Origin: a virus
IMG/VR virus record: IMGVR_UViG_3300034683_000333
DNA length: 64,000 nt
Direction: 5' to 3' (one strand)
The position numbers and the translations under genes are program-made. How positions within the stretch are numbered: position 1 is the stretch's first letter; each line of letters opens with the position of its first letter. Positions 9,736 to 63,594 of this stretch are shown here, one piece after another. A model generated the notes under the pieces. That model was not told the origin of the DNA and searched no databases. It saw nothing but the letters and a program-made list of their open reading frames with translations.

Positions 9736-10344
9736 TTACCTCCGGTTAGTTTTTTTAGATTCAGTAATATTTCTAAAATATGCTATATAAAAAGAATCCA
9801 ATATATCGGAAAGCGGAGACTTTAATTTATCACCACCACCATTAACATCATTATATATAGACAAAACATCGTCGTACCATTCATTTGAAACAATTATCTT
9901 AGATGAATCAACCATATCACAAAAGACTCTAAACAGTTCCTCCTTCTTGGCATTACCCTTATAAATTGCTTTTTTCACCATAGTTGGTGATACAACACAA
10001 AAAGTGTTCATCTGCCTCGTCAAAACCAGTTTTAAAATACCAACGAATTCACCTATCGAAAAAACTTTTCCAACAGCCCTAAAAGCATAATCTTCAATCA
10101 AAAGGTCATCATAATCATACCGTTCAATAAAATTTGAAAATGTTTTTACAACTTCATAATAGTATAAAATATCATTACCAATTGCTTTACGATCAATAAA
10201 TATCGGGGTTATTGTACCACGCTCACATCGATCTGCCATCCTTTGTGTCGGAACCACGACCCAGGATCTCGTTATGCCGTCTTCTGTCTATACGGTCATG
10301 GCCGTAGATGTGATTGAAGGATCAATTCCGATGTAGCACTTCAT
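9736..10344 (-). CDS. ruvC: RuvC-like Holliday junction resolvase; TAG at 10288-10290 (codon 19) read through
   Basis: SD GGAGGT plus ATG 10344 gives MKCYIGIDPSITSTAMTV*TEDG, in frame with IEDYAF, IGEFVGILK, VSPTMVKK, GNAKKEE, DILDSFYIA. Confidence 0.88.
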
Positions 10345-10381
10345 TGCAAAACCTCCGAATTTTTTGATTCATATATTTTAT

Positions 10382-10414
10382 AAAAAAGGCTCGACCGAAG
10401 CCGAGCCTCTTTTA
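10382..10414 (-). terminator. intrinsic terminator
   Basis: AGGCTCG/CGAGCCT stem with T run on the minus strand, immediately after TGA 10420. Confidence 0.65.
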
Positions 10415-10419
10415 GTTAA

Positions 10420-11118
10420 TCAAACCATAAGCTTCAAAAATTGCATTCTCATGTCGTCATCCCATTTGCGATCCTTTAGGCGGATCGGAAGCTTAACACC
10501 CATCGTCCGCAATATTTTCCAAACGTCGGTTTTTTTGTAAAACAAATATTTGGAAAGTTCAAAACATCCATCGGGTGTGAACAAGAACACCCTTTCCGTT
10601 CTTTTTTGCCAATCCTCGGAATCCACCATTTTGACAACCGCAAGGTTCGATTCCTTAACAACCTACGTGATATAGAATCCCTCGGGAATCGAACAATTGG
10701 TAAAATTTCTCAACCTTTTCTTAAAATTCCTATCTCTCCATACAACATACTTTTCAGGAAATGTATTTCTATAGGCCAAATCCCGATCATTTACATTACA
10801 TTCGGTTTTGGTCCAATCATTTCTTCTTATCTTTGCTTTATCTCTTTCAGCCACAATTCGAACATATTTTTTCTGTTTTTCAGTATACCAAGAAACAGTA
10901 AGATATGTGGTTTTAGCCAAATATTTATAGCTGTTTCCAACATGGCCTCCATCCGAATAGATGTAGCCATACTTATTTTCTTCAATCATGGGAATGTATT
11001 TAAACAGTACCCAACGTTCAATGAGACGACACCGATTACCACGTTCTACAGTGTCAAGAATCTACTCGATCTCATTCTTTACATTTTCTACATCAATGAA
11101 AATAAAACGCTTTTCCAT
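10420..11118 (-). CDS. hypothetical protein with two in-frame TAGs (11062-11064, 10663-10665)
   Basis: SD AGGGGG plus ATG 11118; one frame joins track ORFs 10663..10989 and 10420..10629 (KNEIE*ILDT; GFYIT*VVKE); ends TGA at a terminator. Confidence 0.8.
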
Positions 11119-11164
11119 GATTGCCCCCCTATGTTTGAGTCATCCAACCCTTATCGTTAGTTAT

Positions 11165-11193
11165 GATTTATCATAACTTGATAAGTATGTCAA
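11165..11193 (-). promoter_or_regulatory. sigma70-type promoter
   Basis: TTGACA-17 nt-TAAATC with TG extension. Confidence 0.55.
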
Positions 11194-11288
11194 GAAGATT
11201 TTTTAAATTTTGATTGGAAAATTAGATTTTCAAAGGGATGAAATGGAATTGATTAAGACTAACCAAAAAATCAAAGCTATTAAACAAT

Positions 11289-11324
11289 AAAAAACCCGGT
11301 CACTCTATCGAGGCCGGGTTTTTT
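11289..11324 (-). terminator. intrinsic terminator after mucR
   Basis: AAAAAACCCGG/CCGGGTTTTTT hairpin flanked by A/T runs. Confidence 0.75.
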
Positions 11325-11342
11325 GTAGGCGGTGGTAAAAAC

Positions 11343-11927: not shown

Positions 11928-12035
11928 GGTTACACCTCCCACATCTTATTTTGGCTTCTGAAGTTTAAAACTGACCACCACTCTACGGGAATAACAATAA
12001 ATCATCTTGATATAGCGATCAAGCATTTTTTTTCT

Positions 12036-13517
12036 TTATTTAACCTTATATGGTTTTAAGTCTTTAGACTCACTTGTAAAATACTTTAAACCCCTAAAAT
12101 GTGGTTCAATCCATATTGTCTTTCGCAGTGCCATCCTTGGTCCATGAGCTTGTCGCCTAAAATGACCCCGAACACTTACCAGCTTGTTCAACTTCCTACC
12201 AAAACCAGACCCGGAAGGCAAATTGGATATACGACGGACACCAGAACTAGGCTTAATATATATGTAATTGCGTACATAACTTCGGCGCTTTTCTAGTGAA
12301 CGCATCTTTTTCGGTTTCTTGGTTTGTAGGATTTGTTTTTCAAGCTCTGTATACTCTTTCCGATGCACAGCAAGTTCGGGGTAAAGATTTATGTAAAGAA
12401 CAGTAGACAATACTAAATTTAAAACATCCTTCGACATTCTCCTCCCAACACGAGCTTCAGCATCTCTGAGTGTATCACTAGGTTTCTGATTATCAGAAAT
12501 CCTAATATTGTAAAATTTATACATTTCTTCGTTTGTAGTGTACTCAATACCATAAAGCACGAGATGAAGATAATCTTCAAGACGACTCACCAACACGCCA
12601 CGAAACTCGTAATGTTCATCGGGTGTCACCCTGGATAAATCGTGACCAATCCAAAAAGGGTCATCTGGATCAAGCTCATCCACAACATCCATATTTACAT
12701 TTGTGTTCCCGTAATCCAATACCATGACCTCGTTTGGAAATGTAATGTATTTCCATTCCAGTTCACAATCGGTCGAAAATAAATACGGGAATAAAGACTC
12801 GTCGATTTTATAAATTCCACCTTTTAGTAACAATACAATTTCTGTATACAACGAAACAACCATATCACTTAAAACAACATTCGGACCGGCTAATCTAATG
12901 AACCCAAATACGCTATTTACGTACTCATAAGTTACTCGTTCAATTTTATCTTCAATTTTCAGTTCATTATTAAAAACTGCATCAACTATCTTATCCCGAT
13001 TAAGCTTCGGAAGCCTATCGTAAAAATATCGTGTAAACTGATATCCATGACAAACATCTTTTGTTGGCTTAAAACTCGCATACCATTGAAGAGATTCCAA
13101 ATACCTTCTATCAAATTCCTCAACCGAAGAAAATATTTCAATCCTAATACTTTCCTTAATAAAAGACATAAATGCAATATGAGTATTCCCAAACTTCTCA
13201 ATATATGGCTTAAAATAACCAGAACTAAACGTTATCGCACCGAATACCACTTTCCCATTATGACTATATAATTCTTGCATCAACAAACGTAGTACAACAT
13301 CATCCTCTTCTGGAAGATCAACAACATCTTCCATAATAATACCATAATGTAGATACGGTTCTTGGAGACGACCACGATGCCACATTCCCGTTCTTGGAAC
13401 AAATACATATATTTCACTGGGAGTATAAAGTTCAACATCCGGGAAATCATTATAAATTAAGACGGCGCAATAATCCTTAATCCCTATCATCCGAATATGT
13501 GAATTTTGAATGCTCAT
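12036..13517 (-). CDS. phage hypothetical protein with C-terminal VRGHFRRQ..IWIEP motif
   Basis: 493-codon ORF; the C-terminal motif recurs in uncharacterised phage proteins (recalled, not searched). Confidence 0.75.
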   Translation of the reverse strand: MSIQNSHIRMIGIKDYCAVLIYNDFPDVELYTPSEIYVFVPRTGMWHRGRLQEPYLHYGIIMEDVVDLPEEDDVVLRLLMQELYSHNGKVVFGAITFSSGYFKPYIEKFGNTHIAFMSFIKESIRIEIFSSVEEFDRRYLESLQWYASFKPTKDVCHGYQFTRYFYDRLPKLNRDKIVDAVFNNELKIEDKIERVTYEYVNSVFGFIRLAGPNVVLSDMVVSLYTEIVLLLKGGIYKIDESLFPYLFSTDCELEWKYITFPNEVMVLDYGNTNVNMDVVDELDPDDPFWIGHDLSRVTPDEHYEFRGVLVSRLEDYLHLVLYGIEYTTNEEMYKFYNIRISDNQKPSDTLRDAEARVGRRMSKDVLNLVLSTVLYINLYPELAVHRKEYTELEKQILQTKKPKKMRSLEKRRSYVRNYIYIKPSSGVRRISNLPSGSGFGRKLNKLVSVRGHFRRQAHGPRMALRKTIWIEPHFRGLKYFTSESKDLKPYKVK

Positions 13518-13537
13518 TCATTTTCCTTTCAAATAAG

Positions 13538-14495: not shown

Positions 14496-14554
14496 TAAAT
14501 TAAGCCTCCCCCTACTAATTTTTCAAAATAAATTTTTAACACCGGAGACAAAAT

Positions 14555-17500
14555 ATGTTTTCACAAAACTCATCCATGAATCTTGATATCCTATCAAATA
14601 AAGACTTTGTAAAAGCATATAATACAATACTCCAGTCTCTCAATCAAGATACGCCAATTTTTTACCAAAATACTGACAAGTTCCAAATTACCATCAACCC
14701 CCAAGACTTTGACTTACTACAAGTCAACGAAAAACTATCACACGCCATCATACTACCATACGAAGTTAGTATTGTCAATAAATCTTTTATGAAAACAAAA
14801 GTATATCGATTGGTATCACGAAAACTTCCAAATACGATAAACTAGCACACGAACGCACAATTCCCATTCACCGTTGAAATTGACCAAACCAGGTCCTTTC
14901 TATTGTACGTGACTATTGATACACTTGATGATATTGATTGGTTAATCGATAACGATTTGGCATTTGTCGCTTATACAGATAACACCACCCTTTACGAAAT
15001 CGATTTTGCGATAAGAGTGCCTGACATTCGTGGAATTTCTTCATTTAGCCAGTTTGAAAACTACATCGAAGCAAAAGATTGGTACGAATCCGGTGTAACG
15101 GATTTCGACGAAATCATTAACCTTAGTATAGGAATCCATAAACAATCACAAGCAAGCCGCATCCTTAATCAAGCATTGATTGATTTTACAGATCGCTCAT
15201 CACAAGAATTCAATTCATTAATTCAGTCCATTTAGAATCCAGAAGACATCTCTGAACTCGAAAAATAGAGAGCAACCTTCAAACCCCATCTTCCTGGAGA
15301 TTTCATTTGGGCGCTCCTCACACTTGAAGACAACTATTCACTCAAATCAAAAATGAAGTTTAATATTCAAAGAATTTCATATATTTCTGGTATTTTAGAA
15401 AACAAAAAAAATTGCGGATATGATGAAGCATCACAAATGTTTGAAAATTAGAAGAATTCAGTTGAAGTCTATACCGGAACGGACATAACAGAACAACGAC
15501 AAAAACTCGATTTACTTACTATGCAGATCAGAATACCTTGGTTCGGCTCTGAATGGTGTATTTTTGACGTTATTACGACCATTCTAAATATCAATGGATA
15601 CCAAACTACTGTAACAGACAACCAAAGTCTAAAGGAATATGTGGGACAACACATTCGATCAAGCGGAATCAGCAACTTAACACCTTATATAGAAGATGTA
15701 AACATAAACTATGATATTAGCTCACAAATTAAGGAAAATACTTATACATTTACAACTTTGGTTCCTACTGGTTATGTACCTAAACCTGACAATACAACAC
15801 AATATGGTTACAAAATCATTCATGCAGATCATTCTATTTTGTTTAGTGATATTCTCGATACAACCGACTTTGAGATAAGCTTTATATATCATCGCCCAGT
15901 AAACATAACAAGTAGGAATTTTATTTTTCATGATTTCAAAGATTCTTTTATTCAGAAAATGTTAAGTTATGATTGGACATCTTATTTTGGTGGAAGCATC
16001 GACCCAAATATTCCCATTAACCTACTATCGACAGACTACACGATTGAACTCTAGAAAACCAATGAAAATGGTGACTTCACCTACGACAACACACAATGGG
16101 TGGTCAATAAAGTTACAACACTTCATCTTTCTGATGAAATTGTTGAATCTTTTAGAATAACGAACTTTGAAATTCTTGACGATGGAAGTGGTGACATCCT
16201 TCTAACACAAACAAATAATGTAACCGACATCGTTGCAATCCACAAAATTGACGTATTCAATGAAGGAAACACATATTTGCAACTTACTGAAGCGAAATGG
16301 TTTTTGCCTACAATATACCCATATCAAGAACAATTCAAAACAGCATTTCCATCATTCTTCGTTGGCCTCGACACCATAACAAACAACAAAGAATTTTATC
16401 AATCCATGATTAAACGAATCGACATTGTTTCAACTGGAACACTAACTCCTGGTGAAACGGGTTCAATTTTCGTTGTTGTCAGACTGAATAGAAACATATT
16501 AAGTCATTACCTATCACAATTTATTGAAATACCATATGCAATCAAGCTAACATTCAATGAAGATCTTCATTATTACATCACGTGGAGCACAAATGGCATT
16601 ATTTCAAAATACCTCGACTGGAAAGAAGGAAAACAAAAGTATCATCCCAAGAACATTATGTGGCAGTAGCCATTTTCCAATGAAATTCATAACGGTGATT
16701 TGCCACTGGCAATTCCAGATGATGATGTATATAAATACTTTCCACCTAATTTTAATTACTAGTTTTCCACCTACCACGAAGAATCAAGCGACCCAGTGAC
16801 ATATCCCAACGACTTTGTAAAAACACTGGCACGGATGAGCGAAGATCCTTCTACGAATCTACCAGCGCCCATCGTCAAACCTGGACAATACGGCATCGTC
16901 GCATACCCGATGATTCTTCCTATTCCAGAAGGTGAGACAAACATCGGGAGCATTTCTGATCTCATCACCCGGTGTCATACCGCACCACTCAACAAAACCA
17001 CCTATCGAATTCACTGGCTCTATTTCAACGAATTTTTTGATGACATCCTCTCAACATACAAAACGGCAAAAAAACTCGGCTTTAGTTGGATTCCAACGTC
17101 AGAAAATACACACTACGTAACAAATGGTCTTGACTATACTGAAAATAGAATAATTCCAAATACAGGAAGTATTCGACCAATCAATTTAGAATAGTTTACC
17201 AAAATCAACGCAAAAGTTACATTTATGTTTAATGAAACACTTAAAAATGTATTTGAATACAGCTTCCCACGCACCATTTCAACATATGAAACGCTAAGCG
17301 ATGTAGATAAATTTTTACAAGAACTTAAAGGTGAAAATGAAGAAATAATACCACCAAAAGAAGATAAACCAAAGAAGTTTTTGGATAAATTCCTTTACAA
17401 AGTAAAATTAGGTGAAATTGTAGGAAACAAACCAGGAACTATGATTGTTCAAACCGATTATATGAATCTTTTAACAATTCAGCGACACGACAATTTCACG

Positions 17501-19168
17501 ATCAAAACACACTCAATCGGCCCCGATTCACCAGACACGTATCAAATTTCAATAGTTGATCCGACACTTGGTAACGGGGAAATCATTATTCGCTTCTTAG
17601 GATCTGATTACACTTTTACTTTCGAATGGGAAAAAATTGATGAACGTTCCATCCTCGAAAACATTGGTAACGTTGTAATCGATCCAGATTACATCAACCT
17701 TAAATACATTCCCATTGACGAAACATATTCTGTTGCCATCTCCATTACAAATCCAAATCCGTTTCCATTGGATATCACGAGCTTACCCATGGCAAATGAT
17801 TCGATGTTGGTTGTTGAAATGGTTGAATTTCCAGAAAATGAATATCTTAATCTTCTTTATCATCATTGGAAAGTCCTAAATAAACCTTATAAACTTCAAC
17901 CCAATGAAACTGTAAAACTTGTTTTACGAATTATTCCACGTCGCATTGGGGTGAACTTTCATACATTATACTTAAAAATCGGTAATTCAATCCGAACTGT
18001 TGACATCGAATTTAACTCTTTTGTAAATAACAAACCATATTTTGTTCTAGATGAAGAAAGTAGAATTGTCGATTTTGGAGATGTACCCATCGGGAAAATT
18101 GAAGAAAAATCAATTATTATTAAAAATATCGGTGATGTTATTGGAAAAATAAATTCAGTTTACACTTTCGGAAATGATGCTCAACATTTCAAGCTTCTCG
18201 ATCCAAGAACTGGAGAAATTGCAGAACGTTTGTCATTTAATAAGATTGTAAAACCGAAAACATCCCTTCACGTACCGGTACGATTCTACAGCCAATCATA
18301 CGGTCTGAACACGTCGTATGCTCACATCGAAACCAATGAACCGGTTGTTGACCAGTGGCAAATTTTCGATGATTCGACCCAGCTATTCAGAAATGCACCA
18401 AAGTATCTGTCAACACTGTTACGTGCTCAAGTCGTTTTGGAAGACGACCCAGTTGATCTTGATACCTATATTTTCCTTGGTTATGTACATCCAACCAGAA
18501 GTCGTTTTAGAACATACGAATTAACACTCAATAACAAATCATCCGATAAGATCATTAGCATTTAGAAAATTGATAACTACATGAAAAACTATATTAAAAT
18601 AAAATACAGTCAAGAGCCTTTCTCACAGAAAACAAGCGTTTATATAACACTCAATCCAAGATCATATTCAGAAAACATATATTTTGATCAACTATTTGTC
18701 TGGTATTCCGTTTATGACAAGAAGACGCATAAACGTCGAATCGTATTGAAAAAAATACCCATTTCGTGGCAAGTTACCTCAGAAAACTATTATGAATTTG
18801 ACATCAATGCAAGTGAGCTTATTCTTGTCACAAAACCGTTTATCAAAACAATGAAAGTTTTGCATGTCACAAACTTTAGCAACGTCGATGCAACAATGGA
18901 GATAAGCTTTTTGAACGATTTTAGTGGACTTTACTCTATTGTACCCCATCTTATTGGACCTGTTCTTATACCAGAAGGAGTTCGATACACTTTCAGAATT
19001 CTTTTCGGTGGGGATCAACGATTTCTTGGAAAATATGACACAGGAATAAACATTCTATTCAATATTGGTGAATCAACAATATAGAAAACAATTGCATTGA
19101 AGGGACTCATTGGAGAAGAAAACATCATTAAAGCGTACAAGCGAAAAAATATCATCATAACAACCTAA
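14555..19168 (+). CDS. large 1537-aa putative virion/surface protein with ASH/choice-of-anchor-D Ig-like domains; 10 in-frame TAGs
   Basis: Seven track ORFs (14555, 14903, 15521, 16100, 16796, 17225, 18581) are all in one frame, separated only by TAG, with no TAA/TGA until 19166. VDFGDVPIGKIEEKSIIIKNIG..FKLL..VPVRF..HIETNEP is ASH-like. Confidence 0.88.
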
Positions 19169-22734: not shown

Positions 22735-24243
22735 ATGAAAATAAAAAAGCGAAAGAACAACCCAAAACTAATAAAAACACCACAATCGGTCATCCGCATA
22801 AATGATGGTAAAACTGAAGTTTATCGTCAACATTTTTACAAGTTAGCAAATAAACAAAAAAACATCAATCTTAATCGAATAGGATTAAACAAAGACGAAC
22901 GTTTGATAGTTGACACACTACTTGAACATTCCGATAAGGTATATCTTGTTGGTGGTGCTGTAAGAGATTTATTTCTCGGCAAAAAACCAAAGGATTTTGA
23001 TTTAGCAACTGATTTAAAACCAGAAGAAATCATAAAAATTTTTGGTGAAGACAAAGCAAAATTAACGGGAAATGTATTTCCAACAGTCCGAGTAAAAATA
23101 AATGATTCTGAGATTGAAGTAAGTACATTCAGAAAGGAAATTGGAGAACCAACCGGAGATAGAAAGCAATTTACCGTAAAATATGCCACAACAATCCAAG
23201 AAGACCTGGATAGAAGAGATCTTTCCATCAACGCCATTGCCATCAATTGCAAAACGGGGGAAATCGTCGATCCACACAATGGAATTTCAGATATTGAAAA
23301 CAAAGTTATTCGATTTGTAGGCGATCCACGTGATCGACTCCGGGAAGATCCTTTGCGGTTCTACCGGGCCATTCGATTTCGTCTTAAATTGGATGGAAAA
23401 TATGCACCCGAAACGATTTCGGCTCTTAAAGACCCATCAGTGGTCCAAATGGTAAAGGAAAATGTATCTAAAGAACGAATCCGAGAAGAGATTTTAAAGT
23501 CCATGAGCGCCACACAACGGGCGTCTGGATTTTTCAGGGATTTACATGCGTTCGGTATGTTGGAATACCTGTTCCCACCACTAGCCAAGTCCGTAAAACA
23601 CGACGGTGGTCCACACCACGGGGAAGATGTGTTCACCCATGCTATGTTGGTGGGAGACAATTTCACCCCACGAATCCCCAACGATCCCAATGAATCTCTG
23701 GCAAAACTGGCCGCTTACCTACACGACATTGGGAAACCAAGCACATACGACCCCGAAAACCGCTCCTTCTATAATCACGAAAAAATTGGAGTTTCTGTTG
23801 CAACTGAAATTCTAAAAAGCTTGAAATTCTCTACTAAAGAGATAGAATATGTATCGAAATTCATTCGCTACCACATGAACAAACCGACCACCCCAAAGGG
23901 CGCTCGAAAACTGATTCAACAATTCGGTGAAGAAGATTTGCCCAATCTCATCGAGCTTTTTCACGCAGACACAATCTCAAACTTGAACAAAACGCCGGAA
24001 GAGATTAAATTTAGTAAGGAAAAGATTGAAAATATACGGATTTTAATTGATGAGGTAAATTCAGAAAAAGATAAATTTTTGAAACCAATAATTACGGGCC
24101 ACACACTCATAAACGAACTCAAACTTAAACCCGGAAAAATTTTCAAGGAAATTCTCGATTTTGCAAACGAATTGACCTTGGAAGATCCAAATAGAACCAA
24201 AGAGGAAATACTTAACCAAATTAAGAGGAAATTTGATTTATGA
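22735..24243 (+). CDS. cca: CCA-adding tRNA nucleotidyltransferase with HD domain
   Basis: YLVGGAVRD..KDFDLAT, RRDLSINA, EDPLRFYRAIRF, ERIREE, LHDIGKP. Confidence 0.92.
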   Translation: MKIKKRKNNPKLIKTPQSVIRINDGKTEVYRQHFYKLANKQKNINLNRIGLNKDERLIVDTLLEHSDKVYLVGGAVRDLFLGKKPKDFDLATDLKPEEIIKIFGEDKAKLTGNVFPTVRVKINDSEIEVSTFRKEIGEPTGDRKQFTVKYATTIQEDLDRRDLSINAIAINCKTGEIVDPHNGISDIENKVIRFVGDPRDRLREDPLRFYRAIRFRLKLDGKYAPETISALKDPSVVQMVKENVSKERIREEILKSMSATQRASGFFRDLHAFGMLEYLFPPLAKSVKHDGGPHHGEDVFTHAMLVGDNFTPRIPNDPNESLAKLAAYLHDIGKPSTYDPENRSFYNHEKIGVSVATEILKSLKFSTKEIEYVSKFIRYHMNKPTTPKGARKLIQQFGEEDLPNLIELFHADTISNLNKTPEEIKFSKEKIENIRILIDEVNSEKDKFLKPIITGHTLINELKLKPGKIFKEILDFANELTLEDPNRTKEEILNQIKRKFDL

Positions 24244-24666: not shown

Positions 24667-25158
24667 ATGAAGTTTAACAAAAACTAGGCAAAAGAACGAT
24701 TTTACAAATTCAATCACAGCGGTGCGGCAACCGACATAAAACTCACATTATTCGAATGCCGCTCAATGAAAGAATTCTGGGAAACTCTCGAAGAAGGCTT
24801 CGGTCCAATCCGAGACGACGTTCTTTACGGGAAGGGAAAATTTTTTAGTAAAGAAGAAATTCATAAATTCAAGGAAGATCGAATTCTTACGGACTACACA
24901 CGAGAGGTTCACGACATCTTGCGGTTTCTCTCGACACCCGACGTATTTCGAACATTCGAAAAATTATATTTTCAGGAAACCGACAAACCCGACCTTTTCA
25001 CTAGAGAAAATAGTCGGAAATTTTATGAGATGGCATGGCGTCCCTTTATCAAAGACCTACATGCTATCGGGAATATCGAGAAGAATTGGAAAAAATACCT
25101 AACTAACTATGCGAAAAAACTAAATAAAACGAAGGTAAAAGTAAAACAGATCACTTAA
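24667..25158 (+). CDS. hypothetical protein; TAG at 24685-24687 (codon 7) read through
   Basis: SD GGAGAG plus ATG 24667 in frame with track ORF 24766 (MKFNKN*AKERFYKF). Confidence 0.7.
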
Positions 25159-25275: not shown

Positions 25276-26502
25276 ATGCGATTGATGGAGAGTTTCACCC
25301 CCACCGACTATTCCGTTTCGATGGTTGGCTTTCGTCCAACGTCCAATTTGCACCTTGGGCACTATCTTTCCATTATCAAACCAATTTTAGAAAATCAGTT
25401 TAAAACAATAATTTTTTCGGCTGAACTACACACCCTTACTTCTTCACAACATCACCCCGGTCGTGCGTTGAAAGACGCACGAGAAACCACAATCCAATGT
25501 ATCACGACAATTTCTCGCTATGTCAACCTGGACCCTGAACATGTTGTTTTTATCAGCCAATATGAGATGAAAGACAAACACTATGAACTCCATAACATGA
25601 TTATCAACGCTGGAACCACACCGGCAATTCTATTCAGAAACCCAATTTACGTCAGTGCACTTAAGAATGAATTCATTGATTACCTAAACGATAAGCAGAC
25701 ATTAAACGAAGAAGAGATAAATTGCATCGTGGATGTTTTCTTTTCTCATTCCGATATCCTGATTGGTGGGCTAACGCCCTTGGGAACAAACTGTATCATC
25801 AACCAACTCGAAAAATGCAAAATTGATAAAAAGACAATCAATGAAATAATCCATCACGTAACCAAAATCTCTTATGGAAATCTGGGACTAGCCCATTATC
25901 CTCTTCTCATGGCGGCTGATGTGATCCTCTACGAACCCGACACACTCATTGTCGGTGACGACCAGAAACCCAACGTCCAAATAATCCACGAAATCATCGA
26001 TATGTTGACACATCGATGGAACATTGGCATCAAGCGATTTCGACCCGTTTATTCAGGCGACCGACCCCTTTGTGGATTCGACGGACGCAAAATGTCGAGT
26101 TCTCTAAATAATTATCTTCTACTCGATTGGTTCACGACCGCAAAAGATCTAGTTTACGAATATTACAATAGATTTATCACTTATCCGAGACGCCGAACTG
26201 AACCTGGAATCTTCCACGAGTGTCCATTAAGCACACACTGGATCGCCTTTGGAAACAAAGACCAGATTGAAGAAATTCAATCAGCTTGCGAAACAGCAAA
26301 AATTGGATGCCTAGATTGTAAACGTAAAATTGCGGAACACATGTTGGTCACATTGAAACCACGATTTAGGGCCATACCAAACGTCAAAAGTCTCATCGAA
26401 GAAGGAAGTTGGTGGGCCAAAAATCGAATTAAAAATTCGAGTATATTTTCAGATTGGAATTATTCAGAAACCTTCGATTCGCTAGATATTCTTACCTACT
26501 GA
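25276..26502 (+). CDS. trpS: divergent tryptophanyl-tRNA synthetase
   Basis: GFRPTSNLHLGHY (HIGH), AELHTLT, YPLLMAADVILY, VGDDQ, KMSSS, C-x21-C-x6-C-x2-C. Confidence 0.9.
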   Translation: MRLMESFTPTDYSVSMVGFRPTSNLHLGHYLSIIKPILENQFKTIIFSAELHTLTSSQHHPGRALKDARETTIQCITTISRYVNLDPEHVVFISQYEMKDKHYELHNMIINAGTTPAILFRNPIYVSALKNEFIDYLNDKQTLNEEEINCIVDVFFSHSDILIGGLTPLGTNCIINQLEKCKIDKKTINEIIHHVTKISYGNLGLAHYPLLMAADVILYEPDTLIVGDDQKPNVQIIHEIIDMLTHRWNIGIKRFRPVYSGDRPLCGFDGRKMSSSLNNYLLLDWFTTAKDLVYEYYNRFITYPRRRTEPGIFHECPLSTHWIAFGNKDQIEEIQSACETAKIGCLDCKRKIAEHMLVTLKPRFRAIPNVKSLIEEGSWWAKNRIKNSSIFSDWNYSETFDSLDILTY

Positions 26503-26984
26503 TTACCAACCAGCTTCCACATCCGAAAACACGAAAGGGGAACCGAAAAAAACGGTTCCCTTTTTGTATATTTAGTGTTTTTAAAAATGATATTTGACTG
26601 CTTAATTACATCCATCGTTGTAATCAAAAGCGTATTCAAACTGGAATTAAACATGACATACACTTCCGCTTTACAATGGCGTTTTCTAGCTGGCACATCA
26701 ACAGTTTCCTAACCTTGCCATTCTCCATATTTAGTCCACACATTTTTGACTTCCACTTCAACCGGAATATAACAATCATTTTCCTTATCATATAACATAA
26801 TATCAAAATCACGATATTGTTCTTCGTCTGGTACAATAACATCATATCGTTTGAATTGACAAAAAAATGACGCACCCACATTCTTTGCAGGTGCGTCAAA
26901 TTGTTCGTAATGAATTCTACTGAATTTCTTTTTTCCAACGGAGATTTCAGAACAAGAGGCGGATTCCATTCCCACTTTTCGCAC
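26496..26984 (-). CDS. PD-(D/E)XK-like phage nuclease; TAG at 26709-26711 read through
   Basis: DFDIML..VEVEVKNVW..WQG*ETVDVPARK; joins track ORFs 26709..26984 and 26496..26696 in frame. Confidence 0.72.
26534..26565 (+). terminator. intrinsic terminator after trpS
   Basis: GGGAACCG/CGGTTCCC stem followed by TTTTT. Confidence 0.65.
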
Positions 26985-28499: not shown

Positions 28500-29372
28500 T
28501 TAAAACCTCCAAATAACTTTTTTAACTGCATTTACACAATACTTTGATTTGTTACTATACCAAATATCAACATATATACTACAATATTTAACCAACGCCT
28601 CACTATGTAACTTATAATCTATCTTAGATTTGTCCCACCACTTATGAAACTGCTTAGAGTTATACTGTGCCAATTTACCAGCATGTCGATAGTTAAATTT
28701 CTCTCCATCCCACCAAACATCAAAATACTCTGAGCAATACTTAGGTAAATATCCAGAATCTTTTTTCCAATTGAATTTATCTGGATTCCACCATTTGTCA
28801 AAATGTGCGTTACAATATTCAGCTAAATAAGATGAACCACGCTTCCAATCAAACCTTTCTGAGTCCCACCAATCATCAAAATTATCGGCACAACACTTAG
28901 CCAAATAAATCGAATCACGACTCCAATGAAATTTATTTGGATTCCACCACTTCCGAAATTCTTTGTAACAATACATTGCCAAGTACTTGGAACAATTATT
29001 CCAATTGTATCGATTTTCATCCCACCATATATCAAAATATTCAAAACAATATTGAGCTAAATAGCTCGATCCCTGTATCCAATTAAATTTATCAGGATTC
29101 CACCATTTTAAAAAGTCGTTACGACAAAACTTTGCCAAAGCCCACGAAAAGTTATTAAAATTATACTTGTTTTCGTCCCACCACACATCAAAATAACCGT
29201 AACAATACTGAGCTAAAAACCCAGAATGTTCTTTCCAATTGAATTTATCAGCATCCCACCAAAGCAAAAACTTGTCAAAGTGAAGAATAACTAGTCTTCC
29301 AGAATCTTCTTTCCAATTAAACGTTTCGGGATTCCAATTATTGAAATCAATACTAAGGGTCATTTTTCTCAC
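28500..29372 (-). CDS. Trp-rich ~26-aa tandem repeat protein (paralogue 1)
   Basis: Repeated LAxYCxxxFDxWWDxxKFNW units. Confidence 0.85.
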   Translation of the reverse strand: MRKMTLSIDFNNWNPETFNWKEDSGRLVILHFDKFLLWWDADKFNWKEHSGFLAQYCYGYFDVWWDENKYNFNNFSWALAKFCRNDFLKWWNPDKFNWIQGSSYLAQYCFEYFDIWWDENRYNWNNCSKYLAMYCYKEFRKWWNPNKFHWSRDSIYLAKCCADNFDDWWDSERFDWKRGSSYLAEYCNAHFDKWWNPDKFNWKKDSGYLPKYCSEYFDVWWDGEKFNYRHAGKLAQYNSKQFHKWWDKSKIDYKLHSEALVKYCSIYVDIWYSNKSKYCVNAVKKVIWRF

Positions 29373-29815
29373 TCATCCGTCTTGGGATGAATTCCATAAG
29401 AGTCAAACACAAAATCCACTGCTTCGGGCGGATACTCTGGAGCTATGGCCTCAACAAAGGCCGAAACTTCCTTCTCTGTAGGATTCCCACGAAGAATTTG
29501 ATCCCAATTGGAACCCTAACCAAACAGACCAAGCTCGCTGAAAATGATCTTGGCATGTTTCTGAAGACCTGGATCATCTGGTTTTACCTTCAGAAGGTAG
29601 CGCAAAAGCATGGTATAATGCATACGCTCCCAAGGACGGGCTGAATAGAGAAGAGACAAAGACTCTTCACGAGCCTCCCTACCCTTTTTCGTCAAACCAA
29701 GAGAAGGTGGTAAAATGGTATATGTTATTTGGGTGGGAGTTTGCCACAATTGAATTTCACCATCCCTCGTTCTTGCAACCAAATTAACACTCATTGCACC
29801 CTCCTTTGTTATCAC
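29369..29815 (-). CDS. hypothetical protein; TAG at 29516-29518 read through
   Basis: Readthrough adds 48 residues (LFG*GSNWDQILRG..) and ends at a TGA overlapping the next gene start. Confidence 0.72.
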
Positions 29816-29822
29816 GAAACAT

Positions 29823-29851
29823 AAAATATCATATAATTAAGAACTCGTCAA
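29823..29851 (-). promoter_or_regulatory. sigma70-type promoter
   Basis: TTGACG-17 nt-TATTTT with TG extension. Confidence 0.55.
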
Positions 29852-29904
29852 GTTCTTTTTTATCATGAACAACAATGATCAATTCCCAATCTTAATGTTC
29901 ATAA

Positions 29905-31385: not shown

Positions 31386-31387
31386 GT

Positions 31388-32242: not shown

Positions 32243-32272
32243 AAACACCCTCCGACAAATACATTTAAACAC

Positions 32273-49017: not shown

Positions 49018-49094
49018 GCTCCTGTAGCTCAGTAGGTTAGAGCAGACCCCTTATAAGGGTCAGGTTGGTGGTTCAAATCCACCCAGGAGCACCA
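49018..49094 (+). tRNA. trnI: tRNA-Ile, anticodon UAU (reads AUA), CCA encoded
   Basis: Acceptor GCTCCTG/CAGGAGC, D stem GCTC/GAGC, anticodon stem GACCC/GGGTC with loop CTTATAA, TTC T-loop, ACCA end. Confidence 0.93.
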
Positions 49095-50025: not shown

Positions 50026-50751
50026 ATGGGCATTTCGATATCCAATTTACAGAAACCTAGTAACAATTTGTGGATTTACGATTATTCGTATGACAATACA
50101 TATAAAGATCCGATCGATAATCAGTTTTTTGATATTGTAAAATATGAGTCAAACTATTATCTTCTTCAGAAGGAAAACAAGATTGTTTTTTAGGATTGTG
50201 ATTTTAGATCTTCTTCTATTTATACTGATCTATTGGAACCAAGCTTTCCTTGCCTAAAGGAGATGCAGATCAACATTGTTGATGCATTCAAGTTTAGTCA
50301 ACGTTATTATCTTCATGAAAGGGGTGACTATACATTTTTTAGTTATAATATTTATCAAGACGCTATTCAGATAAACATTTCGTTTAGTGGATTACTTAAT
50401 GGGTGTGAAATTGAAACTCCAGAGTATTCACTTATCTATGATTTCTTAATGTCTTATTTATCAAATTTCCTTGACGATACTGTAATTGGATATTACGATA
50501 AAATAAATAATGGTGAATTATTTGAATTGATGTTTCCAAATCTTAATGTACCCATTATTGGAGATCCTTTTGGGAAATGGTCATTAACATATAAAGTGAA
50601 TGTCATTCCAAAAACGTTTCGTCATAAAATAGAAACAGACTATGTTCAAGATTTAACATTGACAATGGCGGTAGATGGTGCTATGCTTATTGGAAATGGA
50701 GGAGCTTCGCAGAAGTTTCCCCATGTCATCGATTTGGGTGTTATTGTTTAA
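50026..50751 (+). CDS. hypothetical (possible tail-completion) protein; TAG at 50191-50193 read through
   Basis: SD GGAG plus ATG 50026 in frame with track ORF 50233 (KIVF*DCDFR). Confidence 0.7.
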
Positions 50752-56244: not shown

Positions 56245-56661
56245 TTAATCAAGATATTTATATTCTAGAAATACGATTGAGCCGAGGTATTTGACAGCCA
56301 AGTAATAACCTAGTGCAATGACATTACGCATTCTTTTTATCTATTTATACTTGCTTTTCTGGTTAATGATCAACAAAAGATTTGTGTGGAAAACTTTGTC
56401 AGAAAGTTTTTTGTCATCGAAATCTTCGGCAAAAAACCACATGAAATCGTGGACACGACAAGCGTCGGTGACACAAAGACCAAGAATCTTGTCGGGTATA
56501 AATTTATCACCCAATTTGTTGGGACCACATCCACCGGCGATTTGGTTAATTTCGTCTTCAGAAAGTCTATTCTACAGTTCCGGTAGCAAAAGTTTTACGT
56601 CACCGACGTATTTACTATTGTAATTTACAAGATCAATTTTCCAATTTTGTAATTTTCCCAT
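56245..56661 (-). CDS. phospholipase A2-like (CG..HD) protein; TAGs at 56572-56574 and 56341-56343
   Basis: Missing from the ORF track. SD AGAGGA plus ATG 56661; GGCGP..IPDKILGL..DACRVHD..DKVF..GYYLAVKYLG. Confidence 0.75.
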
Positions 56662-56731
56662 TGGCTAATTGTCCTCTATGGTTTTTTTGAATTAGTGCAC
56701 TAATTTTTTTGTAAAACATTAAACTTCGTTT

Positions 56732-57433: not shown

Positions 57434-57437
57434 CAAA

Positions 57438-58567: not shown

Positions 58568-58948
58568 TTATATTTCGATAACATCAATGTAAGGATAACT
58601 GGATATGCTGTAGTAAACACGTTTAATCCCAACGTGGGAGATATAATTCATACACCACAAACATGGTTTGGCCTTTAGAAACCTTCCATTTTTGTTAACT
58701 CTTACCACAACCATTTCACATCCATTAAGATCGTGTCGTGCATTTAGAATGGCATCCGCTTCGGCATGAATCGAGGTGTCCCATTTTTTCTACTTTGGGT
58801 GGAGTTTTCTTCTCCAGGAAGTTGTCTTGTTGAACCCATTACTGATGATCCGTTTACCCTTAAAAATGACGGCACCCAACTTATGACGATGATTAGATTT
58901 TTGAGATTCACGAACGGCCATTTCAATTTTGGTTTGGTGCTTACTCAA
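58568..58948 (-). CDS. second Zn-dependent nucleotide deaminase (CDA fold); TAG at 58790-58792 read through; start uncertain
   Basis: HKLGAVIFKG..NGFN..HPK*KKWDTSIHAEADAI..VVVRVNKNG..AKPCLWC; HAE and PCxxC lie downstream of the TAG. Confidence 0.85.
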
Positions 58949-58967
58949 AAACGCACGAATTGTGTCA

Positions 58968-59213
58968 TTACAACTAAGAGAAGAGTCGGTCCCAGAAGCT
59001 TTCCCATTCATCGATGAAATCCTCACTATTTTTTTCTGCCCTTTCGATAGCAACTTCGATTGCCTTTTTTGTGAAAAGAGCTTTTCTGATCGTTCCATTT
59101 TCTTCTTCAATGATTACTGGGACATATTCTTTTGCCGATCCGAACTTACGAAGCTTGTTCGGTATGATTTGCTTTAATGTTATAAAACTTTTAACATCAA
59201 TCTCCTTTTTCAT
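58968..59213 (-). CDS. hypothetical protein (TAG 58974-58976, TAA two codons later)
   Basis: SD AGGAG; ..WDRLFS*L-TAA. Confidence 0.6.
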
Positions 59214-59225
59214 CGTTATTCTCCT

Positions 59226-59840
59226 TTACCATCTTTTCCAGGCTTTTACCCAAGACCTTCTAAGAGGATATATTTTCTAGAATATATAACGGTTCAGTTT
59301 AGTAATATCCTATTTCTCGTCTTCATCCTCTTTATCTTTGTTCTAGGCTCTTGCACTATCTTTTATTATCTTTTGAAACTTTTTTTGTTTAATAAATTCA
59401 AAAATATCTGCTTCAATAGTTTTTTCATTGATTTTTTCAATGTTTTTTTGAATGTTTGGTGTAAATAAATTATAGAACATCAAAACAATAGGTATTTTGT
59501 AGTATAATGTATTGTTAGATATATCACCAAAATAAGTCGTGCTGTCCTCAAATGTCAATAGTTTTGTTACAATGTCTGCTGAACTCATATCCATAAAAAA
59601 CGATACATATTCATTTGTAAACACATTTTCATTTTCCAGTTTTTCATTTGGGTGTTGCTCTTTCTAATCAATATATTTCATGAGTATATTGTCTAATATT
59701 GTATACAGCTTTTCATATTCATTAAAAAATTGTTCTAATGATGAAGATTTGTTTATAATATTCTTCATACGTGTTGTAAGTTCTTTACTTCCATTTGTTG
59801 CGGATAGCAACCGGATAATCGCCTTTGTTTCTTTTTGCAT
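59226..59840 (-). CDS. hypothetical protein with four in-frame TAGs (59664, 59343, 59310, 59277)
   Basis: SD GAGG plus ATG 59840; a single frame fills the whole gap to TAA 59226. Confidence 0.78.
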
Positions 59841-59843
59841 TGT

Positions 59844-60227
59844 TCAATCCCTCATATAGGTAGCTGGATTTTTAATAATTGAAATTATTCGATTTTTATC
59901 TGATATGTTAAATATTTTAGAAATGTGCTCAACTACGATTCTCGATGTCAACATGTTATATACACTTTCTCCAATCGAGTATGGGTTGCTACTGTAGATG
60001 GATTGCGAGTAGATAGCGATTTTGTCCGGTTCTAGGTAAAGTTTTAGAACTTCTTCTTCCACAAACAACAACAATTCCAGGATATCAGTTTTATCATTCA
60101 TTTTCAATAGGTGTTCCTTGATTTCACTCGCAAAACGCATTCCATTTATATTAAATAGTGTGTTTTCTATTGTAGTATCAATTTTATCCATTGTCGTTTT
60201 CTCCAAGTCCAGAAACAACGTGTTCAA
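59844..60227 (-). CDS. hypothetical protein
   Basis: Co-oriented operon member. Confidence 0.65.
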   Translation of the reverse strand: MNTLFLDLEKTTMDKIDTTIENTLFNINGMRFASEIKEHLLKMNDKTDILELLLFVEEEVLKLYLEPDKIAIYSQSIYSSNPYSIGESVYNMLTSRIVVEHISKIFNISDKNRIISIIKNPATYMRD

Positions 60228-61980
60228 ATTCCTTGTAGATTTTATATTTTATTTTATTTGTAACTGATTTGATGTTTCGCATAACGGAATCGTCTTGTCG
60301 ATGGATCTTGTGGATTGGGGATTCGTATGTAAACGTCTTGGCCTTGGATACCAAAGTGGGAATCTCCCTTTTCAACTCTTTCATTGTGACTTTTTCAATT
60401 GTATCTTCTTCAATTAGATTTTTTGCAATGGATTTGAGCCTTCCAATGTCTTTAATTTTTCCATTTCGCACACCCTCCTTTATTACATCCAATCGAAATT
60501 GAATATCTGGTACTATTTTACTATTGGAGATCATTTGTGTATGAGTGTTTGTTATATTTAACACATTTTGTTCAACTTTCTGAGGATCTACAAGCATCTG
60601 TTTGGAATCCATATATTGCAGTAGTTTTTTTATAAAAGTCAAATCACGTTCATCTTGACCATAAACCTTCCAGTGATCGAAGTTTGTAATCTTCTCATCA
60701 TCGAGAAGAGTTAGAAATATTCTAGCTGTTTTCTTATATAGACCATTTTTGGGTCGTTCATTTCCGATGTAAACAATAAAATCTCCAATCTCGTCGAGGT
60801 AGTATGTTTGTGGTATGTTGATGTTGTGTTCATTGACGTTTACGTTTCCATCCTTGGTAAGTGCAATACACGTATCCAGATAACCATCATGGCTGGCTGA
60901 CAAAAAATCAAGTGGATTCACACTTACATACACAAGACGTTTATGTTTTGTCTTTCTCGGGTCTACAATGTCCCACAAAATCAACGAAAATGTGTGAATT
61001 GTTTTGTGGATAGCGTCGTTTTCATCAAGGTCGGTATAAAAGATTGGAATACATCCATGTTTTCCAATGTAATCCAGAGTTGGAAGGACTTTGCCCTTGG
61101 GGAGCTTGGAAAGAATCGAAACAACCGGGTGTTCCTCGCCAAATTGGGTTTTTATGTTGCCTAGCCACTTACTCGGATCACTACTGATGTTCCATCCATT
61201 GGAGATGAAAAATTCCTGGATTTCATTGATATGTGTGCGTTTTATTGGTTGGATTAATCCAGAGTCGGCAAAGCGTTTGTTAAATAGTGTTCTCAACAGA
61301 AGAATCGGTCCAATTTTGGACGTAAATTGTTTTTTCGTCGTTTTTTGTTCACGTATAAACAAAACAAGATTTTTGAAGAAATCTGGTTCAAAAGATGTAA
61401 AATCTGCAAATAATTCTTTCAATTTGTCGTTTCGTTTGGATATGCTTTGTCTAAACTGCTTAAACATCTTTTCATTGATGATTTGAGCAATTTCATCACC
61501 GGATTCGTTATAAGATGTTTCCTACCAAAAACGAAATACAAAATTGTTGATTCGTTCAATTTTTGAATCGATGGTATTTTTAAATATGCGTTCCAACTCC
61601 ACTGACCTATTATATAGATTTGAAACATAGTTATCCGAAACAATTTTTTTATAGAATGTTGTCGAATCTTTTATGTATTCTCCCCATCCGGTTTCATTTA
61701 TGGATTCTATACATTGTGTTAGAAGTCCCGTTCCATTTAATGCCGGTTCATCACAGAAATGACGTTTTCCCATTTTGTAAAGTTTCAAAATTCCTTGTTC
61801 TACCTTTTCGACGTTGTTCTCTTCTAATGCTTCGGATACTTCCTTTACAGCATTTTGCATATCACCCCAATGAGGGATACTTTTTTCCGGGTCAATTGGA
61901 ACAATTTTCTGATAACCGGAAACAAATTTACCTTCACGTAGGTGAGGTCTAAAATATATATTCTTCAAGATCTTTGCCAT
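60184..61980 (-). CDS. hypothetical 598-aa protein; TAG at 61522-61524 read through
   Basis: Track ORFs 61522..61980 and 60184..61467 are in frame (VFRFW*ETSYNESG). Confidence 0.78.
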
Positions 61981-62076
61981 AAGACACCTTTCGTTTGAAT
62001 AGGGTGTTTTGTAAATTAGTTTGGATGCTCAATATTTATTTTTTAAGAACTATATATTCTAAAAAGGGGGTATAGA

Positions 62077-63594
62077 ATGAAGGTTGTTAAGTTCAAAAAG
62101 TCGTTTTAGGTTTCGGATGCAAAGGGAAAGAATCTCAAAATTGCAAATAATGGGTACTATGTGTTTTCAGATTTTGTGTTGAAACAGTTTATTGATAGTG
62201 TAAAAGTTAATCCAACCGAACTGTTAGAATATGTTAACGAGTTGGATCGGGAATATCCATTGATGAGGTTTGATAAACCCGATTCACAAATTAAACCCAA
62301 TCGAGCGCTGATGATTGTTCGAACGGGTGGAATTGGTGATCTTATTGCTTTGAGTCACATTCCGACGTTGTGTAAAACAATTTACAATAATGTTTATGGT
62401 CAAAACTTGAAAACATTTTTTGTTACCGATGCCCGCTACAGTGCGGTTTTTACCTACTACGATGAGTATGTAAAGCCCATTTATTATTTCAGGACACCTG
62501 TGAACAAGGCTTTCAAGGAGATGGGAATCTTTGAGAAAAGCAGTGTTCGGTCGATGTTTTTTGAGGGGGTTATTGAGGAGAGTGAAGAAAATTGGTTCGA
62601 TTTGCAGTGGGAGCGCATGGGAATCGATAAATTTCAACATCTTGATAAACTCCCCGACGAAATAAAAATTAAGCGACCGAATTTGGTGGATAGAAGGGAA
62701 GCCATATCCCGATCGCTAGATCAGTTGCGATTTGAAAAATCCGATGTTCCGAGGCAACTATTGGGACTTAAAGAGGATGGATATCGTTTGGTTCTTATCA
62801 ATCACCGTGCAAGTGCATGGATCAGAACATTCAATCCATCGGATGTCGTTGAAACACTACGTGATTATTTGAAGGAGAATGGTGTTGAAAAGGTCAAGTT
62901 CATCGTGTTTCCTAGAAACTTTACAAAGAGCGATGAAGAGTATTTTAAAAATCCACTGGATGACGTTGTGTGTTTAAAGACTGAAAATCTTCATGAGTTT
63001 TTCTTTACAATTGCTATTTCTGATTATGTTATTTCATCCGATACGGCTGCGCATCACTTCAGAGAAGGCATTCGAGCACCAGGTATGGGAATCTATTCTT
63101 CATTTCCAATGGAAATGCGTTGTAAATATTACAAGTATACAGTTGCGGAGAATATTTTATTTGATGGTTGTGAATTTGTTTGTGATCGGTCAAATTATGT
63201 CGGGTGTGTAAGCCATTTCAAAAATCCTTACGAGGTATGTCCATGGATTGCAAAACGTTATTCTGAATATCTCAAGAGCGAACATCATCACAAGCGTGGA
63301 AATCGCATTCCAAATAAAACATGGTTGAGTGAATTGGAAGATTTTGTGAAAAATGTTGGCTATGACACACTTCAGGAGGAACACATTTTCCAATATGCCC
63401 CATGTTGCGATTCTCGTTGGAATGAACGGTTCAGGGATCGTTTGATAGAGCTTTATGAAAAACACGATCTCGCCGGAATTTTGAAAGACGTGGGAGGAGC
63501 AGAATTCACCGTCGTGGGTTCACAAACAAAACCACTAAGTAAAACCAAAAAGAAGACTAGTGGAAAACGGGGTCGTCCACGTAAAAAGAAATAA
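62077..63594 (+). CDS. glycosyltransferase family 9 (ADP-heptose heptosyltransferase-like); TAG at 62107-62109 (codon 11)
   Basis: IVRTGGIGDLI, LINHRAS..R, VISSDTAAHH..APGMGIYS; SD AAGGGGG plus ATG 62077. Confidence 0.8.

Follow-up and report, generated by a model that had tools for sequence, protein, structure and literature searches.

Several phages are known to read a stop codon as sense. In the described cases of amber recoding, in crAss-like, Lak, Phassvirus and other phages, TAG is read as glutamine (NCBI table 15), in-frame TAG is concentrated in structural and late genes, and a phage tRNA-CUA is present; these phages mostly rely on host GlnRS, and 28 of 29 phage tRNA-CUA gave Gln in E. 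coli extract (Seki et al., PMC12636597). A second kind, the ‘code-change module’ of the Jade phages and the AP1 and HF2 pairs, combines a phage tryptophanyl-tRNA synthetase (TrpRS) with a tRNA-Trp(UCA) that recodes TGA to Trp (Borges et al., bioRxiv 10.1101/2021.08.26.457843; Seki et al., PMC12636597). Borges et al. state that only TAG->Gln and TGA->Trp were seen in phages that differ from their host's code. The assignment TAG = Trp is known from the Balanophoraceae plastid (NCBI table 32), a plant organelle with an extremely AT-rich genome in which the whole genome changed code and TAA and TGA remain stops.

The subsurface phage analysed here (IMG/VR record IMGVR_UViG_3300034683_000333) appears, from comparative evidence, to use TAG as a second tryptophan codon. 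As in the plastid, TAG is read as Trp while TAA and TGA remain stops, but here a virus carries the code change into a cell and uses it on part of its genes. No earlier report of this assignment in phages or bacteria was found in the searchable literature. ‘Window’ below refers to the stretch of 64,000 nucleotides that was analysed, out of a record of 126.5 kb.

Results

Reading TAG through restores long open reading frames. Over the whole record a greedy ORF set went from 184 ORFs covering 86% to 126 ORFs covering 93%, and long ORFs were interrupted only by TAG, including one of 1537 aa within the window and, outside it, ORFs of 2511 aa (27 TAG) and 1598 aa (20 TAG). The window contained 23 ORFs with at least one in-frame TAG, and 40 TAGs, although a few of these are doubtful: a TAG at codon 3–12 may lie upstream of the true start, and two ORFs on opposite strands, 10441-11166(+) and 10420-11118(-), compete for the same DNA, the former being poor-looking. 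A 598-aa ORF joined across a single TAG aligned with a paralogue outside the window (596 aa, 4 TAG) along residues 3-578, across the TAG (E=6e-13). Features are listed in Table 1.

Table 1. Features of the window and the amber tRNA. Positions are those of the window unless stated; (a) marks the TAG of each of the ten peptide contexts cited in the preliminary description.
Feature	Position	Strand	Length	In-frame TAG	Observations
RuvC-like resolvase	9736..10344	-	202 aa	10288-10290 (a)	Pfam RuvC 5.9e-05 on residues 64-136; TAG outside the matched part
Outlier ORF	10420..11118	-	232 aa	11062-11064 (a), 10663-10665	CAG and GAG in strain L024
ORF, probably a virion or large structural protein	14555..19168	+	1537 aa	10, starting at 14843, 15233, 15266, 15449, 16052, 16667, 16760, 17192, 18563, 19082	Weak Ig-like domain hit; 18 TGG
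CCA-adding enzyme / tRNA nucleotidyltransferase	22735..24243	+	502 aa	0	Pfam PolyA_pol 3e-35, HD, tRNA_NucTran2_2; no TGG
ORF between CCA enzyme and TrpRS	24667..25158	+	163 aa	24685-24687 (codon 7)	TGG in strain L024
Divergent TrpRS	25276..26502	+	408 aa	0	Pfam tRNA-synt_1b, E=1.8e-27; 6 TGG
ORF (‘WQG[TAG]ETVDVPARK’)	26460..26984	-	174 aa	2, including 26709-26711 (a)	No Pfam or PDB match
tRNA-Ile (UAU)	49018..49094	+			ARAGORN
ORF (‘IVF[TAG]DCD’)	50026..50751	+	241 aa	50191-50193 (a)	
ORF (‘PEL[TAG]NRLS’, ‘SKYK[TAG]IKRMR’)	56245..56661	-	138 aa	56572-56574 (a), 56341-56343 (a)	No Pfam family
dCMP/cytidine deaminase-like ORF	58568..59110	-	180 aa	58790-58792 (a)	Pfam dCMP_cyt_deam_1 1.8e-13; TAG in a variable loop of the PDB alignments
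ORF	59226..59840	-	204 aa	4, including 59664-59666 (a), 59343-59345 (a), 59277-59279 (a)	
ORF joined across one TAG	60184..61980	-	598 aa	1 (codon 153)	Paralogue outside the window
tRNA-CUA	genome 69063-69139				About 5.1 kb beyond the window's first base; ARAGORN, Rfam RF00005 at 72.8 bits

The preliminary description had proposed, from sequence context and assumed family consensus, that TAG encodes tryptophan or another aromatic residue. All ten of the peptide contexts it cited exist at in-frame TAGs, and its interpretation is supported, but its own evidence was weaker than supposed. The family consensus it assumed for a ‘nuclease’ (26460..26984) and a ‘PLA2-like’ protein (56245..56661) was not confirmed, and most of the homologue positions on which it relied could not be tested. 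Its argument that adding TAG to TGG brings the 1537-aa protein to a normal Trp content (1.82%) does not discriminate between residues, and the idea that TGG is depleted is wrong: TAG-rich genes already have 1.8-2.5% TGG, and adding TAG brings Trp to 2.8-3.7%.

The meaning of TAG was inferred instead from codon-level comparison with relatives. An exhaustive HMMER search and word searches recovered orthologue fragments at 45-81% identity from three diverged, TAG-recoded relatives in metagenomes (contigs L012/L013, L017 and L019; about 58% aa identity), which place TAG at different sites. Of 126 TAG-versus-sense codon pairs, 61 were TGG, 16 Tyr, 11 Phe and 2 Gln, against a background of 1.6% Trp (binomial P of 4e-74). 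Under a likelihood using the substitution matrix of the same alignments (8875 pairs), Trp was best, with Tyr at -130, Phe at -197 and Gln at -335 lnL units. In well-aligned stretches 27 of 36 partners were Trp, equal to the 74% Trp among the sense-codon partners of TGG sites. Conversely, 21% of TGG codons in this phage were TAG in a relative, compared with 0.4% of Gln codons (1 of 249) and 1.3% of Tyr codons. TGG and TAG switched at 33.7% of conserved sites, within the range for true two-fold synonymous pairs (27-44%), and 13 TAG-TAG pairs were conserved in the alignments with L012/L013 and L017. It should be noted, however, that TAG sites were less conserved than TGG sites (41 of 78 against 140 of 163 stay TGG or TAG, Fisher P = 6e-8).

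In the 1537-aa ORF, compared with L019 at 61% aa identity, the TAG at 16667 aligned with TGG, 16052 with TAT, 17192 with TAG, 18563 with GTT and 19082 with ACT, while L019 had TAG opposite TGG of this phage at 15974, 16097, 16583, 16619, 16661, 17627, 17867 and 18701. One TAG, in the sequence HT[TAG]PE, fell on the invariant Trp of the AdoMetDC motif HTWPE in PDB 2iii, 1vr7 and 1tlu, and this TAG is conserved in the relative. In a 99.65%-identical strain (L024), the TAG at 24685 is TGG, and the 163-aa ORF that contains it is called whole under the standard code. In contrast, the two TAGs of the ORF at 10420..11118 correspond to CAG (Gln) and GAG (Glu) in that strain; all 6 differences in this ORF are non-synonymous.

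The candidate decoding machinery comprises a tRNA with anticodon CUA, a TrpRS-like enzyme and, beside the latter, in the same + strand block, a CCA-adding enzyme. The tRNA-CUA has an unusual acceptor end (C1:G72 and U73) and is unchanged in strain L005. ARAGORN labels it tRNA-Pyl, a label that follows the anticodon only: the molecule is a canonical cloverleaf with a 9-nt D-loop containing GG, a 5-nt variable loop and a UUCGAAU T-loop, matching the Rfam tRNA model end to end, rather than the compact form expected of tRNA-Pyl, with a short D-loop lacking G18G19, a 3-nt variable loop and an atypical T-loop. Its anticodon arm matches a tRNA-Lys(UUU) in a MAG tRNA array, so the tRNA body gives no Trp signal. 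The only other tRNA found in the contig was the tRNA-Ile (UAU).

The TrpRS (Pfam PF00579) is divergent. All its best NCBIfam models are trpS, tyrS models being far weaker, but it scores below the curated cut-offs (97.9 against 176.75 bits for TIGR00233), and there is an insertion of about 70 aa between residues 123 and 193. The best PDB hits are bacterial TrpRS, with 2g36 at E=1e-22. The class I signatures are present as HLGH and KMSSS, as are the four Cys of 2g36, and aelHtlT, YPLLMAADVILY and VGDDQ align with 2g36, 2el7 and 3m5w; if the B. stearothermophilus TrpRS is a guide to which residues line the Trp pocket (His of xDxHAxT, Met and Asp of YPxLMAADIL, and GxDQ), the pocket is intact.

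TAG use followed gene class: it made up 0.19% of codons in the window (replication) half and 0.94% in the late block. The tabulated replication and nucleotide-metabolism genes (PolB, RNR, RecA-like, SNF2), the TrpRS and the CCA-adding enzyme contained no TAG, whereas the large late structural genes write about one Trp in three as TAG.

Discussion

The best explanation is that in this phage lineage TAG is a sense codon meaning tryptophan, so that TGG and TAG form a two-codon Trp family (probability roughly 0.85), although the amino acid is inferred from evolution only. Decoding would use the phage tRNA-CUA, and it is inferred, but not shown, that this is charged by the phage's own TrpRS. In a host that reads TAG as stop, the late proteins could therefore be completed only once the phage's amber-Trp system is running. 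The contig is about 64% complete by CheckV, so other code-change genes may exist unseen.

As in the TGA-recoding modules, the phage encodes its own TrpRS and a suppressor tRNA, both written in standard code, late or lytic genes carry the recoded stop, and Trp is the inferred residue. Here, however, the anticodon is CUA rather than UCA, and the TrpRS would therefore have to accept U35 instead of C35, rather than a changed wobble base. The acceptor end is C1:G72/U73, where AP1 has G73 and HF2 has A73. The TrpRS and tRNA lie about 30 kb apart and do not form an operon; the neighbours of the TrpRS are the CCA-adding enzyme and two ORFs without a family, and no release-factor gene was seen, albeit without a specific genome-wide search. 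Like the glutamine-recoding phages, this phage concentrates in-frame TAG in structural and late genes, encodes a tRNA-CUA and presumably infects a host using the standard code, but the residue is Trp and it carries a TrpRS.

A further possibility, perhaps only slightly more likely than not, is that the TrpRS and tRNA(CUA) form a natural, self-contained amber-suppressing pair, in which the C1:G72/U73 acceptor end would keep host synthetases off and the TrpRS would have been re-tuned to a CUA anticodon. This would be the first genetic code in a phage or bacterial system in which TAG means Trp, used as a timer that makes late-gene translation depend on the phage's own translation parts.

It is possible, though unlikely, that TAG is Trp but the tRNA-CUA is charged by the host's TrpRS or another host enzyme, the phage TrpRS serving another purpose, such as boosting Trp-tRNA supply late in infection. 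The distance between TrpRS and tRNA would be consistent with this, Borges et al. found that most recoded phages lack a synthetase and proposed that host enzymes are used, and the late genes are sufficiently Trp-rich that more TrpRS activity could be useful in itself. However, bacterial TrpRS, judging from the E. coli enzyme, would be expected to depend on the CCA anticodon and G73, neither of which this tRNA has, and amber tRNAs are typically taken by GlnRS. A dedicated enzyme therefore explains Trp at TAG more simply, and phage TrpRS:tRNA-UCA pairs that work this way are known.

It is more doubtful that TAG has a mixed or context-dependent meaning, being mostly Trp but also a leaky stop or another residue, especially in early genes before the suppressor accumulates. 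The lower conservation of TAG sites and the CAG and GAG of the outlier, an early-region ORF, would fit, and several TAGs lie within a few codons of the ORF end (for example the SLT gene, at codon 219 of 224). Against this, the number of TAGs near ORF ends is, by rough estimate, about what chance gives, the partner spectrum of TAG (Trp, then Tyr, then Phe) mirrors that of TGG, switching with TGG runs at the synonymous rate, and the outlier ORF looks fast-evolving as a whole.

That TAG encodes Tyr or Phe is very unlikely: although these are the next most common partners, and TAT and TAC are single-base neighbours of TAG, Tyr sites in the same alignments keep Tyr in 69% of cases and show Trp in 3%, while TAG sites show Trp in 48% and Tyr in 13%, the latter matching the 12% Trp-to-Tyr rate of TGG sites, and the synthetase has the TrpRS motifs AAD and aelHtlT, not those of TyrRS. 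Glutamine, despite being the prior from all described amber-recoded phages and one TAG/CAG polymorphism, is refuted at the level of comparative evidence, and the U73 and C1:G72 of the tRNA would also suit GlnRS poorly if, as is usual, it prefers G73 and a weak 1:72 pair.

Genomic context

The window is the reverse complement of bases 1-64000 of a single 126,535-bp virus record, with one base differing between the two copies (window 27073), and has a G+C content of 36.6%. CheckV rated the record 64% complete, and identical proteins were found on contigs of up to 195 kb elsewhere. Sequencing runs containing the sequence are labelled subsurface and oil-field metagenomes. The window holds replication and nucleotide-metabolism genes (family B DNA polymerase, ribonucleotide reductase, a RecA-like protein, SNF2 helicase, an SbcC-like ATPase, a PD-(D/E)XK nuclease, deaminases and an SLT lysozyme), whereas the large structural genes lie mostly in the other half of the record.

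Coordinates of the features discussed. Positions are those of the window, or of the whole record where marked ‘genome’; L004 is a stretch of this genome, and L029 is a locus from other assemblies that continue past the contig end
Feature	Coordinates	Strand	Length	In-frame TAG
1537-aa ORF	14555-19168		1537 aa	10
598-aa ORF	60184-61980		598 aa	
Small ORF with TAG/CAG and TAG/GAG differences	10420-11118	-		2
TrpRS-like synthetase	25276-26502		408 aa	0
Family B DNA polymerase ORF	513-2675	-		
ORF running off the window start	2-472	-		
Protein with precomputed PF26125 annotation	12036-13517	-	493 aa	
Four tandem paralogous ORFs	28500-32272	-	290, 234, 259 and 294 aa	0
tRNA-CUA	genome 69063-69139			
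AdoMetDC-like ORF	L004:4707-5141 (genome 121107-121541)			
Segment absent in a sibling strain, just before the tRNA-CUA	genome 67465-69036			
Second segment absent in a sibling strain	genome 95733-98244			
Region compared with the replaced module of relatives	genome 98245-121000			
Continuation in other assemblies	L029:1-3074 (beyond genome base 126535)			

TAG is read through

Under the standard code the 1537-aa frame falls into fragments, but with TAG read through it is a single ORF. Over the whole record there are 174 in-frame TAG, including 27 in a 2511-aa ORF, 20 in a 1598-aa ORF and 12 in a 769-aa ORF, and a greedy ORF set improved from 184 ORFs covering 86% to 126 ORFs covering 93%. The 598-aa ORF aligned with its 596-aa paralogue right across its TAG, although paralogues were too diverged to be informative about the residue inserted. 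All ten peptide contexts cited in a preliminary description of the window, which had proposed that TAG encodes tryptophan, are present.

Family, structure and composition evidence

Almost none of the TAG-bearing genes has a Pfam or PHROG family, and a profile-based tally therefore has nearly no columns. The exception is the AdoMetDC-like ORF, in which HT[TAG]PE aligns with the invariant HTWPE of three solved AdoMetDC structures. This ORF has CS where solved enzymes have the self-cleaving ES motif, and its start overlaps the predicted start of the 1598-aa ORF on the other strand, so that the latter probably starts further downstream. PDB searches were uninformative for the deaminase, RuvC, the putative nuclease and the ORF after PolB: the deaminase TAG lies in a variable loop, and the RuvC match does not reach the TAG.

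Evidence internal to the genome was likewise of little help. TGG is not depleted in TAG-rich genes, in which the addition of TAG brings Trp content to 2.8-3.7%, and the argument of the preliminary description, that counting TAG as Trp gives a normal Trp content, therefore carries no weight. A naive-Bayes test on flanking residues ranked Trp last, but it was confounded by gene composition and by Trp clustering, and had no resolving power within the late genes alone; we give it no weight. The repeat pair KQ[TAG]FSKLNMN / KQWFSKLNMN was sought, but is not in the genome.

Diverged relatives are themselves TAG-recoded

No close relatives were found in IMG/VR, GenBank phages or a first metagenome scan. 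These comprised searches of viral contigs with a TAG-rich protein and with the TrpRS, a tblastn search of the 2511-aa protein against 50,697 phage records, and a metagenome pattern scan with the same protein; a word search with a TAG-free structural protein recovered only itself. A pattern scan for similar amber tRNAs found three unrelated phage contigs, none with a TrpRS, one of which (G001) shares only replication genes. Near-identical strains (L005 and L006) showed no change at any TAG, and the oil-field runs yielded only low-depth fragments, 99% identical or more, with no difference at a TAG.

An exhaustive HMMER search with 1200 residues of the 2511-aa protein, with TAG entered as Ala so as not to favour Trp, recovered five non-identical fragments at 33-70% identity, and word searches with the 1598-aa protein and with the window's 1537-aa protein found further fragments at 66-81%. 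Of the contigs carrying these fragments, L012/L013 and L017 are co-occurring strain variants from the same two JGI samples, 99.8% identical to this phage over one stretch, but carrying a replaced tail or large-structural-protein module at only about 57% aa identity, which looks like a mosaic host-range module swap. L019, from an ENA/Logan assembly, is a more distant relative, 61% identical across the C-terminal two thirds of the window's 1537-aa gene. All three are themselves TAG-recoded, with many TAG at different codons; the 2513-aa orthologue, for example, has 18 TAG where ours has 27.

Codon comparison supports tryptophan

Orthologous ORFs were aligned with TAG masked as X, and the codons in each column were read, giving 8875 sense-sense pairs at 58% aa identity and 126 TAG-versus-sense pairs. 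The partners of TAG were Trp (61), Tyr (16), Phe (11), Ser (6), Leu, Val and Gly (4 each) and Gln (2); as Trp makes up 1.6% of these alignments, the binomial P is 4e-74. The partner spectrum of TAG copies that of TGG (74% Trp, 12% Tyr, 4.5% Phe), and in well-aligned stretches 27 of 36 TAG partners were Trp. Of our TGG codons, 21% are TAG in a relative, compared with 1.3% of Tyr codons and 0.4% of Gln codons. Among sites that stay TGG or TAG, the two codons differ in 33.7% of cases, against 27-44% for true two-fold synonymous pairs, and TGG and TAG therefore behave as one synonymous family. In the alignments with L012/L013 and L017, 13 TAG are conserved as TAG, including the HT[TAG]PE codon.

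Within the window's 1537-aa gene, TAG 16667 faces TGG, 16052 faces TAT, 17192 faces TAG, 18563 faces GTT and 19082 faces ACT, while L019 has TAG opposite eight of our TGG codons. In a 99.65%-identical strain (L024), the TAG at 24685 is TGG.

Although this reading is inferred from sequence comparison rather than from protein, with the substitution frequencies measured in the same alignments Trp was the best assignment. TAG sites are less conserved than TGG sites (41 of 78 against 140 of 163, P = 6e-8), which fits a young codon sitting at less constrained Trp positions, but would also fit some ambiguity in decoding. Moreover, in the small ORF at 10420-11118(-) the two TAG are CAG and GAG in strain L024, although all six differences in that ORF are non-synonymous, so that the gene as a whole appears to be evolving fast or decaying. 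Of the other single-residue readings, Tyr was 130 lnL units worse than Trp, Phe 197 and Gln 335.

A candidate decoding system

The record encodes two tRNAs, Ile(UAU) in the window and the tRNA-CUA. The latter scored 72.8 bits against Rfam's tRNA model, and is a normal cloverleaf with loop CU-CUA-AA, but has C1:G72 and U73, whereas bacterial TrpRS and GlnRS appear to prefer G73 and GlnRS probably favours a weak 1:72 pair. Its designation as ‘Pyl’ by ARAGORN reflects only the anticodon. The only genome hit to the anticodon arm was a tRNA-Lys(UUU) in a MAG tRNA array.

The window also encodes a class I synthetase whose best matches are all TrpRS. It has HLGH and KMSSS, the TrpRS-type pocket motifs, an insertion of about 70 aa, and four cysteines that align with those of Thermotoga maritima TrpRS 2g36; the latter enzyme may bind a 4Fe-4S cluster near the anticodon-binding domain, which would fit an anaerobic subsurface host. 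However, the phage enzyme scores below NCBIfam's cut-off, and its only phage match was a 27%-identical trpS in Microcystis phage MaAM05. A CCA-adding enzyme, which likewise contains no TAG, lies just upstream. Published phage TrpRS:tRNA-UCA pairs do the same job for TGA, and by analogy the simplest model is that the phage TrpRS charges the CUA tRNA with Trp, although this step is inferred. TAG is five times more frequent in the late block than in the window half, consistent with the published idea that recoding delays late-gene translation until the phage's own parts are made.

Relation to described recodings

Phage recoding has been described as TAG to Gln and TGA to Trp or Gly, and Borges et al. 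(bioRxiv 10.1101/2021.08.26.457843) state that only TAG to Gln and TGA to Trp occur where phage and host codes differ, a published argument being that host GlnRS and TrpRS are easily hijacked. Of 29 phage tRNA-CUA tested, 28 gave Gln in E. coli extract (PMC12636597). In the literature searched, TAG to Trp appeared only for Balanophora plastids, and no phage case was found. What we describe is thus a known strategy, and a known type of synthetase-tRNA module, applied to a codon-residue pair not described for phages or bacteria in that literature. A TAG-to-Trp phage breaks the rule of two recodings and implies a dedicated synthetase-tRNA solution. It also bears on annotation, since pipelines that try only tables 4, 11, 15 and 25 will mistranslate such genomes, putting Gln at every recoded Trp, while Pfam-based code callers have almost nothing to align here, because few TAG-bearing genes have a family. 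A natural TrpRS/tRNA-CUA pair with an odd acceptor stem is, in addition, a candidate orthogonal amber pair, and would be the counterpart of the recently exploited phage AP1 TrpRS/tRNA-UCA pair (PMC12636597).

Other features of the genome

The two segments absent in sibling strains (L005 and L012) each carry one of a pair of paralogous ORFs (413 aa and 356 aa, 26% identical), so they may be mobile genes. Other assemblies continue past the contig end with an HNH endonuclease (RRXRR/HNH) and a DUF488 gene, and the record is therefore a fragment of a larger genome. The family B DNA polymerase ORF ends after profile position 202 of 453, and the next ORF (308 aa, one TAG) may be the rest of the enzyme, so the gene may be split or interrupted; the distant relative G001 also matches in two pieces. 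For the 493-aa protein, precomputed annotation on identical contigs lists PF26125 (AcrVA2-like), although our own Pfam scan gave no family at E <= 0.001. The four tandem paralogous ORFs are 37-47% identical to each other, and the one scanned against Pfam (28500-29372) matched no family.
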